64,000 bases of DNA from GCF_054482525.1 NZ_CM137006.1, one strand, 5' to 3'; shown: positions 32,718 through 50,424, counted from the stretch's first letter. The notes: generated by a model from the sequence alone, not told the origin. Translations and numbers: made by a program.

Positions 32718-34373
32718 ATGACTAATCTTCCCCACTGGTGGCAAAACGGCGTTATCTACCAGATTTATCCAAAGAGTTTTCAGGACACCACGGGTAGCGG
32801 CACCGGCGATTTACGTGGCGTTATCCAGCGCCTGGACTATCTGCATAAACTGGGCGTTGATGCCATCTGGCTAACCCCCTTTTATGTCTCTCCCCAGGTT
32901 GATAACGGTTACGACGTAGCGAACTATACGGCGATTGATCCCACCTACGGCACGCTGGACGATTTTGACGAACTGGTGACACAGGCAAAATCGCGCGGGA
33001 TTCGTATCATTCTCGATATGGTGTTTAACCATACCTCTACCCAACATGCCTGGTTTCGCGAGGCGCTGAACAAAGCAAGCCCTTACCGCCAGTTTTATAT
33101 CTGGCGCGATGGAGAACCAGAAACGCCACCGAACAACTGGCGTTCAAAATTCGGTGGTAGTGCGTGGCGCTGGCATGCGGAAAGCGAACAGTACTATTTG
33201 CATCTCTTTGCACCAGAACAGGCGGATCTCAACTGGGAGAATCCAGCGGTACGCGCAGAGCTGAAAAAAGTCTGTGAGTTCTGGGCCGATCGTGGGGTCG
33301 ACGGGTTGCGCCTGGATGTGGTGAATCTGATCTCCAAAGACCCGCGTTTCCCTGATGACCTGGATGGCGACGGGCGTCGCTTCTACACCGACGGGCCACG
33401 AGCACACGAGTTTTTGCACGAGATGAACCGCGATGTGTTTACGCCACGCGGGTTAATGACCGTAGGTGAAATGTCCTCCACCAGCCTTGAGCATTGCCAG
33501 CGATACGCGGCTCTGACAGGCAGTGAATTGTCGATGACCTTTAATTTTCATCACCTGAAGGTCGATTATCCCGGTGGTGAGAAATGGACGCTGGCTAAAC
33601 CTGACTTTGTGGCGTTAAAAACATTGTTCCGCCACTGGCAACAAGGAATGCACAACGTGGCATGGAATGCCTTGTTCTGGTGTAACCACGATCAGCCGCG
33701 CATTGTTTCTCGCTTTGGTGATGAAGGTGAATACCGCGTGCCTGCGGCAAAAATGCTGGCGATGGTGCTGCATGGCATGCAGGGAACGCCATATATCTAC
33801 CAGGGCGAAGAGATTGGCATGACTAACCCACATTTCACGCGCATTACTGACTATCGCGACGTGGAGAGCCTCAATATGTTTGCCGAGCTGCGCAACGATG
33901 GGCGTGATACCGACGAGTTATTGGCAATCCTCGCCAGTAAATCCCGTGACAACAGTCGCACACCCATGCAATGGAGCAACGGCGATAATGCCGGGTTTAC
34001 GGCTGGCGAACCGTGGATTGGCCTGGGCGATAACTATCAGGAAATCAACGTAGAAGCCGCGCTGGCCGATGAGTCCTCGGTGTTTTACACCTACCAAAAG
34101 TTAATCGCACTGCGTAAGCAAGAAGCCGTCCTGACATGGGGCGATTACCAGGATCTGCTGCCAAACAGTCCTGTATTGTGGTGCTATCGCCGTGAATGGA
34201 AGGGGCAAACCTTGTTGGTCATTGCCAACCTTAGCCATGAGATCCAACCCTGGCAGCCAGGGCAAATGCGCGGCAACTGGCAGCTTGTGATGCATAACTA
34301 CGAAGAAGCCTCACCACAACCCTGTGCCATGACTTTACGGCCTTTTGAGGCTGTCTGGTGGTTACAGAAGTAA
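32718..34373 (+). CDS. treC: trehalose-6-phosphate hydrolase
   Basis: Start MTNLPHWWQNGVIYQIYPKSF (551 aa), GH13 family; the ORF-track start 32571 lies inside treB. Confidence 0.94.
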   Translation: MTNLPHWWQNGVIYQIYPKSFQDTTGSGTGDLRGVIQRLDYLHKLGVDAIWLTPFYVSPQVDNGYDVANYTAIDPTYGTLDDFDELVTQAKSRGIRIILDMVFNHTSTQHAWFREALNKASPYRQFYIWRDGEPETPPNNWRSKFGGSAWRWHAESEQYYLHLFAPEQADLNWENPAVRAELKKVCEFWADRGVDGLRLDVVNLISKDPRFPDDLDGDGRRFYTDGPRAHEFLHEMNRDVFTPRGLMTVGEMSSTSLEHCQRYAALTGSELSMTFNFHHLKVDYPGGEKWTLAKPDFVALKTLFRHWQQGMHNVAWNALFWCNHDQPRIVSRFGDEGEYRVPAAKMLAMVLHGMQGTPYIYQGEEIGMTNPHFTRITDYRDVESLNMFAELRNDGRDTDELLAILASKSRDNSRTPMQWSNGDNAGFTAGEPWIGLGDNYQEINVEAALADESSVFYTYQKLIALRKQEAVLTWGDYQDLLPNSPVLWCYRREWKGQTLLVIANLSHEIQPWQPGQMRGNWQLVMHNYEEASPQPCAMTLRPFEAVWWLQK

Positions 34374-48627: not shown

Positions 48628-49584
48628 TCAATACCCCATGTTTTTCTTCTTCTCTAACTCTTCTTTTGCGGTATTAGGCAGGTAAAGGGTGGACTTGGTC
48701 AGGGTCAGCTTTTCAGGCATGGTGCCGTCTTTTTTATATTTCTCCAGCGCATCAAAAGCGGGGCCTGCCATGTTCGGCGTCAATTCAACACTGGCGTTCG
48801 CTTCGCCATCAATCATCGCTTTGTAGATGTCCGGCACACCGTCGATAGAGCCTGTCAGGATATCTTTGCCCGGTTTCAGGCCCGCTTCTTTAATTGCCTG
48901 AATTGCACCAATCACCATGTCATCGTTATGGGCGTAAACCATGCAGATGTTTTTGCCGTTGTTTTCCGCTTTGATAAAGCTCTCCATCACTTCTTTGCCT
49001 TTGCTGCGGGTGAAGTCACCTGACTGCGAGCGGATAATTTTGATATTTGGCGCATTCTTAATGGCTTCGGCAAAGCCTTTCTTACGGTCAATGGCGACGC
49101 TGGCCCCAACGGTGCCCTGCAGCTCCACCACGTTGCATGGTTTGCCATTCACTTCTTTTACCAGCCAGTCACCAATCAACTTGCCTTCGAGGATGTTGTC
49201 GGCGGTGACAGTGGTCATATAGAGAGATTTGTCTTTCACATCGATGGAACGGTCAAGCAAGAAGACCGGGATTTCGGCATCTTTCGCCTCTTTTAATACC
49301 GGCTCCCAACCGGTCGCTACCACTGGAGCGATAAAGATCGCATCCACCCCTTGCGCGACGAAGGAACGTACCGCTTTAATCTGGTTTTCCTGCTTTTGCT
49401 GACCATCGGCAATTTTCAACGTAATTCCGCGCTTTTCGGCTTCACTTTTCGCCACATTGGTTTCTGCGGCGCGCCAGCCGGATTCCGATCCGACCTGCGA
49501 AAATCCAACGGTTAATGGAGCGGCCAACGCCATAGACGACATGGCTGCCGAGACTGCAGAGACTACAAGTAAGCGTTTCCACAT
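48628..49584 (-). CDS. ytfQ: galactofuranose ABC transporter periplasmic binding protein
   Basis: 318 aa with signal peptide. Confidence 0.92.
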   Translation of the reverse strand: MWKRLLVVSAVSAAMSSMALAAPLTVGFSQVGSESGWRAAETNVAKSEAEKRGITLKIADGQQKQENQIKAVRSFVAQGVDAIFIAPVVATGWEPVLKEAKDAEIPVFLLDRSIDVKDKSLYMTTVTADNILEGKLIGDWLVKEVNGKPCNVVELQGTVGASVAIDRKKGFAEAIKNAPNIKIIRSQSGDFTRSKGKEVMESFIKAENNGKNICMVYAHNDDMVIGAIQAIKEAGLKPGKDILTGSIDGVPDIYKAMIDGEANASVELTPNMAGPAFDALEKYKKDGTMPEKLTLTKSTLYLPNTAKEELEKKKNMGY

Positions 49585-49654
49585 AGGGTTGTCCTCGTCG
49601 GGGTAATTATTATTGGTGAAAAGATGTTCGCGAAAAAACTATAGACAATTCGTT

Positions 49655-49675
49655 ATGTAACGGATTGCGTTACAT
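49655..49675. promoter_or_regulatory. candidate operator palindrome upstream of ytfQ
   Basis: atgtaacg-gattg-cgttacat: perfect 8-bp inverted arms, about 70 nt upstream of the ytfQ start in the ytfQ-ppa divergent region. Confidence 0.35.
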
Positions 49676-49893
49676 CACACTTCAAAAAAGTAAATAAAAC
49701 GTTAATCACAAGTTTGTAATCGCTTTCACCTCACTATGAAAAATGCGGCTACGGTTATGGATTTTCCTGCTCTTTAAACCATCTTAAAACTGGCTAAAAA
49801 GGAAAATGAAGAAGAAAACAAGCGAAGACATTCGGCGCGAGTTGGCTATAATACTCGGCACTTGTTTGCCACATATTTTTAAAGGAAACAGAC

Positions 49894-50424
49894 ATGAGCT
49901 TACTCAACGTCCCTGCGGGTAAAGATCTGCCGGAAGACATCTACGTTGTTATTGAGATCCCGGCTAACGCAGATCCGATCAAATACGAAATCGACAAAGA
50001 GAGCGGCGCACTGTTCGTTGACCGCTTCATGTCCACCGCGATGTTCTATCCGTGCAACTACGGTTACATCAACCACACCCTGTCTCTGGACGGTGACCCG
50101 GTTGACGTACTGGTCCCGACTCCGTACCCGCTGCAGCCGGGTTCTGTGATCCGTTGCCGTCCTGTTGGCGTTCTGAAAATGACCGACGAAGCCGGTGAAG
50201 ATGCGAAACTGGTTGCGGTTCCGCACAGCAAGCTGAGCAAAGAATACGATCACATTAAAGACGTTAACGATCTGCCTGAACTGCTGAAAGCACAGATCGC
50301 TCACTTCTTCGAGCACTACAAAGACCTCGAAAAAGGCAAGTGGGTGAAAGTTGAAGGCTGGGAAAACGCAGAAGCCGCTAAAGCTGAAATCGTTGCCTCC
50401 TTCGAGCGCGCAAAGAATAAATAA
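49894..50424 (+). CDS. ppa: inorganic pyrophosphatase
   Basis: 176 aa, matches E. coli Ppa. Confidence 0.97.

Follow-up and report, generated by a model that had tools for sequence, protein, structure and literature searches.

A conserved inverted repeat over the ytfQ core promoter of Enterobacteriaceae is probably the operator of a dimeric DNA-binding protein

Introduction

Repressors of the HypR/SifR/SaiR/YwnA type of the Rrf2 family occur mostly in Firmicutes, where the regulator gene lies beside its site, and they control their own genes together with redox- or quinone-detoxifying enzymes. They are expected to repress as homodimers, from operators that have a TGTAAC-N7-GTTACA core with a mostly unconstrained central 7 bp and that overlap promoter elements. 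Gel shifts with S. aureus HypR showed binding to TAATTGTAACTA-N3-CAGTTACAATTA and its loss on mutation of the arms (PMC6067689). S. pneumoniae SifR binds TGTAA-N9-TTACA with a Ka of about 1e8 per M, and the authors of that study call this sequence the canonical Rrf2 operator (PMC9218516). For the ScNsrR-hmpA1 complex, the central 7 bp of the operator could be altered without effect on binding (PMC9338935).

Operators of GalR/GalS (galOE/OI, mglB, and galP) are built on the half-site TGTAAC or GTTACAT, and at galE one operator lies upstream of the gene and another just inside it. At CRP-dependent sugar or nucleoside promoters with a repressor operator over the CRP site, such as lac O1 with LacI and the promoters shared by CytR and CRP, the specific repressor competes or interacts with CRP, an arrangement that we propose here for ytfQ. 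The CytR half-site ATGCAAC is one base apart from the ATGTAAC of the palindrome described below and, as Pedersen and Valentin-Hansen are said to have found in 1997, tolerates variable spacing. CytR requires TGCAA and binds in the gap between two CRP dimers spaced by about 53 bp; unlike a CytR site, the ytfQ palindrome lies downstream of a single strong CRP site and reads TGTAA.

The literature describes the promoter of the ytfQRT-yjfF operon as under GalR/GalS, AraC, and CRP. Control by GalR/GalS is stated in PMC10191376, and GalR binding at ppa/ytfQ has been reported (PMC5110547). Control by AraC is stated in PMC10191376, which cites Stringer 2014. Genomic SELEX with CRP recovered the ppa<>ytfQ spacer (PMC3105977), and in a cya mutant ytfQ was down 3.6-fold and ytfR 5.2-fold (PMC4512719).

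Here we describe a palindrome in the spacer between ytfQ and ppa. It resembles the HypR/SifR/SaiR/YwnA operators in that the core and the spacing are identical, the central 7 bp are mostly unconstrained, and promoter elements are overlapped; repression by a homodimer would be the expected mode here too. It differs from them in its target, a sugar (furanose) ABC transporter, and in having no adjacent regulator gene. With the GalR/GalS operators it shares the half-site and the physiological regulon, and the two true GalR operators of ytfQ are arranged around it as those at galE are arranged; it differs from them in half-sites that stand 5 bp further apart, in the lack of a central CG, and in a far lower matrix score.

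Results

Sequence, position, and chance expectation

The window, that is, the whole stretch of DNA that was analysed (64,000 nucleotides), carried ATGTAACGGATTGCGTTACAT at 49655-49675 on the plus strand with zero mismatches. This is the perfect 8-bp inverted repeat with a 5-nt spacer that the earlier note had seen in the ytfQ-ppa control region, and it was the single match in the 64 kb with up to three mismatches allowed. The palindrome lay inside the 309-bp spacer between the two divergent genes, and its proximal edge was 71 nt upstream of the ytfQ ATG, which agrees with the earlier estimate of about 70 nt.

48628..49584, minus strand: ytfQ coding sequence; the controlled gene, which opens the ytfQRT-yjfF operon
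49894-50424, plus strand: ppa, divergent neighbour of ytfQ
49655..49675, no strand: palindrome, conserved core 7-7-7; arms 49655-49661 and 49669-49675, spacer 49662-49668

The identities of ytfQ and ppa were assigned from annotated E. coli PCN033, with which the DNA is 100% identical, and from 5,425 of 5,426 complete E. coli genomes, in which the stretch is present and bears both annotations. In this strain the palindrome has an 8-5-8 layout, ATGTAACG-GATTG-CGTTACAT. K-12 (MC1061) reads ATGTAACGCAATCTGTTACAT, with two 7-bp arms and a 7-bp spacer; the innermost (8th) pair is already lost there (GCAATCT vs GCAATCC), and the perfect 8 bp is a feature specific to this strain.

Perfect 8-bp inverted repeats with spacers of 0-10 bp gave 51 register hits at approximately 27 separate loci in the whole window, five of the hits having a 5-bp spacer, against first-order Markov expectations of 12.6 (0-10 bp spacers) and 1.2 (5-bp spacer). 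Many of these loci are presumably terminators. An 8-bp inverted repeat by itself is statistically unremarkable; the palindrome is significant because it is conserved, and chance was rejected on conservation alone. There was no second copy of the motif in the window (up to three mismatches) or in the mglB-galS, als, or yfhH regions, and therefore no regulon was visible in the regions examined.

Conservation among Enterobacteriaceae

A scan with the YtfQ protein, using one genome per species, yielded 80 loci, among which the 23 Enterobacteriaceae with ppa as the divergent neighbour formed the comparison set; it includes Escherichia, Citrobacter, Enterobacter, Pseudocitrobacter, Phytobacter, Superficieibacter, Mangrovibacter, and Pluralibacter. 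The phylogenetic footprinting that the earlier note had proposed showed that the core was kept: ATGTAAC-N7-GTTACAT was perfect in 21 of the 23 ytfQ-ppa spacers, had one change in Enterobacter cloacae, and was lost in Pluralibacter gergoviae. All 14 arm columns were identical in at least 22 of the 23 species. Within the spacer, positions 2 and 3 ("CA") were invariant, position 5 was the same in 21/23, and the remaining four positions were variable, while the 5-nt linker between the palindrome and the next conserved block, the -10 region, had 21 different sequences among the 23 species. Arm columns differed from spacer plus linker columns with p = 7e-5 (Fisher test, 23 species). Judged from the alignment, invariant arms with a largely free centre and flanks are the signature of a putative site for a dimeric protein, and together with the overlap with the CRP site and the -35 region described below this pattern supported the earlier suggestion, drawn from size and symmetry, of a dimeric repressor operator.

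The palindrome was absent from the ytfQ upstream regions of Erwiniaceae, Pectobacteriaceae, Yersiniaceae, Aeromonas, and Vibrio. Many of the taxa lacking it (Erwiniaceae, Aeromonas, and Vibrio) retain AraC-type half-sites and TGTGA upstream of ytfQ. In Enterobacteriaceae bacterium RIT691, approximately 110 bp of additional sequence separates the ribosome-binding site from the conserved -10 block; the palindrome of this genome is otherwise intact, at 201 nt from the ATG.

Architecture of the ytfQ promoter

The elements located around the palindrome were as follows. The GalR matrix was built from 18 ChIP-derived, published GalR operators.

49664..49679, minus strand: CRP-type site TGTGA-TGTAAC-GCAAT, centre 49671.5, about -40.5 to -41.5 from the predicted start
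49638..49643, minus strand: predicted -10 box TATAGT, within invariant CTATAGTT, in 23/23 species
49714..49729, minus strand: upstream GalR/GalS-type operator GTGAAAGCGATTACAA, 16.4 bits with the GalR matrix
49567..49582, plus strand: published GalR operator AAGTAAGCGTTTCCAC, overlapping the ytfQ start codon, 18.8 bits
49735..49772, minus strand: AraC-type I1-I2 direct repeat GAGCAGGAAAATCCATA-4 bp-TAGCCGCATTTTTCATA, one mismatch each to TAGC-N7-TCCATA

The 6-bp spacer of the CRP-type site is the left arm of the palindrome, which starts at the last base of TGTGA. The overlapping TGTGA-N6-GCAAT agrees with CRP in the left half and, in the right half, in the conserved "CA", and in the pattern TGTGA-N6-nCAnT both TGTGA and this "CA" were present in 23/23 species; the overlapping CRP site thus explains the two invariant columns of the palindrome spacer. 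The predicted -10 box lies 12 bp downstream of the palindrome core, and no -35 hexamer was recognisable at the ytfQ core promoter. With TATAGT taken as the -10 box, transcription is predicted to start near 49631, which places the CRP centre at about -41, the class II position. On this prediction, the palindrome stretches from about -44 to about -24 in a class II CRP promoter; this argument from position is weaker if transcription starts further upstream.

A canonical GalR/GalS-type operator was found at the homologous upstream place in 23/23 species, and the sequence of the ppa/ytfQ GalR operator is listed in Tables 3 and 4 of PMC5110547. The two GalR/GalS operators lie 40 bp upstream and 73 bp downstream of the palindrome. 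The AraC I1-I2 repeat was likewise conserved in the 23 species. The distance from the AraC-GalR module to the block containing the CRP site and the palindrome was 23, 34, or approximately 126 bp depending on the genus, and the palindrome therefore belongs with the core promoter and not with that module. For the same reason AraC cannot act at ytfQ by touching the -35 region as it does at araBAD. The AraC repeat itself sits 5 bp from the GalR/GalS operator in all 23 Enterobacteriaceae (49714-49772), and an interplay of AraC and GalR, by displacement or loop breaking, is a possibility.

Three further conserved stretches were observed in this region. The operator at 49567-49582 covers the ytfQ codons M-W-K-R-L-L, where operator and coding constraints coincide, and this stretch is conserved across Enterobacteriaceae and nearly unchanged in Erwiniaceae. 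Just upstream of the CRP site, at 49690-49705, both the short and the long spacer classes have a conserved TTAAC-N6-TT(T/C)AC, which looks like a direct repeat of 11-bp period; it might be bound by a response regulator or touched by the alpha subunit of polymerase. In the predicted 5' leader, 49592-49618 contains a strongly conserved CCAA(C/T)AATAA...CTACGAGGA that reaches well past the ribosome-binding site and is a candidate target of small-RNA or translational control.

Separability of the palindrome from the promoter

The palindrome is embedded in a highly conserved block that runs from TGTGA to CTATAGTT; its left arm is the CRP spacer and its right arm lies in the region covered by polymerase. 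These positions favour a reading without any separate factor, in which the arms are conserved because CRP and RNA polymerase themselves require them at this class II promoter, be it for DNA shape, for bendability, or for contacts with the alpha or sigma subunits. We consider this improbable. P. gergoviae keeps TGTGA, GCATT, ATTGTC, and TATAGT with block length and spacing unchanged, and has replaced 5/7 bases of the left arm and 3/7 of the right arm, which read CCTCGC and GTTCATT, respectively. Since the CRP half-sites and the -10 box are retained there without the arms, the promoter and the CRP site do not need the arms. In this comparison the palindrome is an element separable from the CRP site and the promoter, both arms having been lost together. 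CRP spacers and the -30 to -24 region are normally without sequence constraint at class II promoters, which also counts against a requirement of the promoter itself. Moreover, the two arms are reverse complements of each other, and a one-sided promoter contact would not require that.

An RNA hairpin was weighed as a further explanation. The AraC I1-I2 repeat lies approximately 60 bp upstream of the palindrome, and activation as at araBAD, with a start at about 49700, would put the palindrome into the leader of a longer, AraC-dependent transcript, where its 8-bp stem (-9.2 kcal/mol) could affect stability, termination, or translation. However, none of the three spacer classes had a -10 box suitably spaced from the AraC site, and the palindrome is upstream of the predicted transcription start. 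The fold was not unusual (z = -1.48), no U-tract follows the stem, a terminator scan found none, and the best Rfam hit reached 22 bits against a threshold of 60. Compensatory changes were also missing: the E. cloacae variant breaks a pair without compensation, and in other species the innermost pair is G-T or T-T. An RNA stem would leave the invariant sequence of the arms unexplained, and we regard this reading as very improbable.

Comparison with the idnK-idnD site

The earlier note had pointed to a related half-site in the idnK-idnD control region and to the possibility of a shared or related sugar-acid regulator. The sequence ACGTTATGCGTAACAT was indeed found at 2972-2987. It is a 16-bp palindrome with the half-site ATGTTAC and a 2-bp centre, the LacI-type layout reported as common to IdnR/GntR (PMC4052901). 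The relationship to the ytfQ motif did not hold. Both sites are A/T-rich palindromes with GTAAC and GTTAC in control regions of sugar genes, as binding by one regulator of the IdnR/GntR type would suggest; however, the half-sites are ATGTTAC (idn) and ATGTAAC (ytfQ), with TGTTAC vs TGTAAC at their core, GTTAC and GTAAC stand in reversed order, the centres are 2 and 7 bp, and the total lengths are 16 and 21 bp. The ytfQ palindrome thus departs from ATGTTAC-NN-GTAACAT in half-site, order, and spacing. The resemblance is one of base composition only, and a common regulator is hardly credible. A lone ATGTAAC without a partner stands at 2992-2998 behind the idn palindrome, and at 2972-2999 the idn palindrome is directly followed by GTAACA-N6-GTAACA, which includes this lone ATGTAAC.

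GalR/GalS and other known regulators

The palindrome has half-sites of the GalR type, (G/A)TGTAA(N)C. Its arm GTTACAT is the half-site end of several GalR operators, for example GTGGTAGCGGTTACA at galE (PMC5110547), and orthologous upstream operators share the arm half-site, such as GTGTAACCGGTTACAC in one orthologous locus (L011). GalR ChIP gave a strong signal at ppa/ytfQ (ratio 22; PMC5110547), and the palindrome is flanked by two canonical GalR operators. It might therefore be a third, non-canonical GalR/GalS site whose arms are perfect half-sites 5 bp further apart than normal. The arms would be occupied by two dimers, or by a single one whose headpieces are flexibly tethered, and would help a loop between the upstream operator and the start-codon operator to close over the promoter. 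The ChIP-chip peak spans the whole ppa/ytfQ spacer and is too broad to tell occupancy of the palindrome from that of the two canonical operators (PMC5110547).

Against this reading, the palindrome is not the contiguous 16-bp even palindrome with a central CG that GalR recognises: the spacer is 7 bp vs 2, and the central CG is not conserved, with T there in three species. The best GalR matrix score touching the palindrome was 7.2 bits, whereas the 18 source sites of the matrix scored at least 14.4. In a survey of 1303 LacI-family motifs, 1251 were even palindromes and almost always had a central CG, and the remainder were off by one base and not by five (PMC4052901). The distance between the upstream GalR operator and the palindrome varies by approximately 100 bp between genera, and no split site of the GalR type was seen in the mglB-galS region. 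A GalR/GalS site is thus an outside chance. Two other GalR-like sequences were observed. The GalR matrix gave 16.6 bits for TTGATAACGGTTACG at 32899-32913 of the window, a score on a par with that of the upstream ytfQ operator, and upstream of mglB in MG1655 (L082, 4540-4557) TGTAAC-CCGTA-TGTAAC forms a direct repeat in the mglB direction, with half-sites of the GalR type in tandem and not inverted.

CRP was rejected as the reader of the palindrome, which has TGTAA-N9-TTACA vs the TGTGA-N6-TCACA of CRP; the overlapping CRP site is separate and is kept in P. gergoviae. For AraC, only a half-site with three mismatches overlaps the right arm, and the palindrome lacks TAGC-N7-TCCATA direct repeats with a 21-bp period. 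The NsrR motif is gATGyAT-N5-ATrCATc (PMC1274295), with an 11-1-11 layout. NsrR belongs to the Rrf2 family, and the GATGTA of the palindrome half-site fits the gATGyA of E. coli NsrR operators such as that of ytfE, whose genuine site is AAGATGCATTTAAAATACATCTT. The motif differs in a seventh base and is 4 bp narrower, with a spacer of 5 bp vs the 9 bp that the palindrome has in the same register, and NsrR was rejected.

YtfH was rejected because its own promoter has a different palindrome, read by eye as ACTTAC-N5-GTAAGT. The gene ytfH encodes an uncharacterised regulator of the HxlR type, and the palindrome in the qorB-ytfH spacer of MG1655, which is outside the window (L205, 2577-2593, ACTTAC-TTTTA-GTAAGT), is likely the YtfH operator. 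Neither AlsR nor YfhH (RpiR family) had a similar motif in its own control region. In the ChIP-exo tables for 34 uncharacterised E. coli regulators, only two peaks were assigned to ytfQ/ppa and none fell on the palindrome: by inferred position, the YfeC peak (ytfQ) is at approximately 49420-49452 and the YcjW peak (ppa) at 50205-50231, which, on the assumption of U00096.2 coordinates (deduced from the alsB entry), puts both within coding sequence at a distance of some 200 bp or more from the palindrome.

None of the regulators known or proposed for the ytfQ promoter fits the palindrome, and this includes the four that the earlier note had named as candidates (GntR, IdnR, GalR/GalS, and CRP). 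That note had also reckoned with a palindrome neither conserved in orthologous spacers nor matched by a regulator motif; it proved to be conserved, and no E. coli regulator motif among those tested matched it.

Match to Rrf2-type operators

The palindrome core TGTAA-N9-TTACA is an exact match to the published operator of HypR/SifR/YwnA-type Rrf2 proteins. Four columns of the central 7 bp vary, as expected if the protein does not read the centre. In sequence and geometry, the E. coli palindrome is a putative operator of the HypR/SifR/YwnA class. A scan of metagenome contigs for exact ATGTAAC-N7-GTTACAT gave at least 120 loci, at least six of which were enterobacterial ytfQ promoters. Among the matches listed, 12 of the 114 non-ytfQ loci had a gene of the Rrf2 family within 700 bp, and the motif stood mostly at the start codon of those genes; exact copies of the E. 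coli 7-7-7 motif thus stand at the start of metagenomic Rrf2 genes. Pfam PF02082 was matched with E = 1e-31, and the nearest solved relatives were 1YLF and YwnA 1XD7. There was no second E. coli locus among the matches listed, of which only about two derived from E. coli.

A YwnA-like Rrf2 gene, 60% identical to the metagenomic ones, was found on a conjugative IncF plasmid of Klebsiella pneumoniae (NZ_CP094480.1; L206, 978-2429), divergent from an NAD(P)/FAD oxidoreductase gene. Such a gene is carried by 24 Klebsiella plasmids. It had no blastn match in any of 5,426 E. coli genomes, a DNA-level search of limited reach with which a remote YwnA-type homologue in E. coli may be compatible. To our knowledge, E. 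coli K-12 has only two Rrf2 proteins, IscR and NsrR. Their reading helices and motifs differ from those of the YwnA type. A search for the written-out motif found no literature, and no paper linking ytfQ to NsrR, IscR, or Rrf2 was found. It is a long shot that a core regulator of Enterobacteriaceae outside any recognisable YwnA clade, or a new binding mode of IscR, NsrR, GalR, or GalS, reads TGTAA-N9-TTACA here.

Two related sequences were noted. Five metagenome contigs of 62-69% G+C (L086, L153, L155, L156, and L192) carry the longer palindrome AACATGTAACGTATTACGTTACATGTT with no Rrf2 gene within 700 bp, and this may be the operator of another regulator family with the same core. At 20854-20872 of the window, TGTAAGGTTAACCTTTGCA contains the perfect 12-bp palindrome AAGGTTAACCTT and is one mismatch from TGTAA-N9-TTACA.

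Discussion

The pattern of conservation makes it quite likely that the palindrome is a functional protein site. We put at roughly 0.65 the probability that a dimeric DNA-binding protein, most likely a repressor, uses it as an operator over the ytfQ core promoter, and we think it probable that the palindrome gives the ytfQRT-yjfF promoter an input separate from AraC, GalR/GalS, and CRP. As to the binder, a small share of the protein-site estimate goes to a non-canonical mode of GalR/GalS and a similarly small one to an Rrf2-like reader; the rest goes to some other regulator.

In the proposed model, a homodimeric repressor would occupy the palindrome at -44 to -24, with ATGTAAC at about -44/-38 and GTTACAT at about -30/-24 as counted from the conserved -10 box. 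This would place the left arm between the two half-sites of the class II CRP site and the right arm at the -35 contact of RNA polymerase. An overlap with the CRP site and the -35 region is a typical position for a repressor. The bound protein would exclude CRP, RNA polymerase, or both, and so turn the core promoter off, and this repression would act independently of the upstream AraC-GalR module.

The finding concerns one operon and one site. At this promoter the sites for GalR/GalS, AraC, and CRP are located, and its best-conserved symmetric element belongs to none of them. If nothing binds the palindrome, it presents an unusual case in which part of a class II CRP promoter is under strong and symmetric constraint. 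Should a protein bind there, one input is missing from the regulatory map of a well-studied E. coli operon, and there is a testable target for one of the uncharacterised regulators. A concrete hypothesis that is cheap to test comes from the exact match to the operator of redox- and quinone-sensing Rrf2 repressors; were such a regulator or binding mode to be found, the furanose transporter would gain a fourth input, possibly the sensing of redox state or electrophiles, that overrides activation by CRP.
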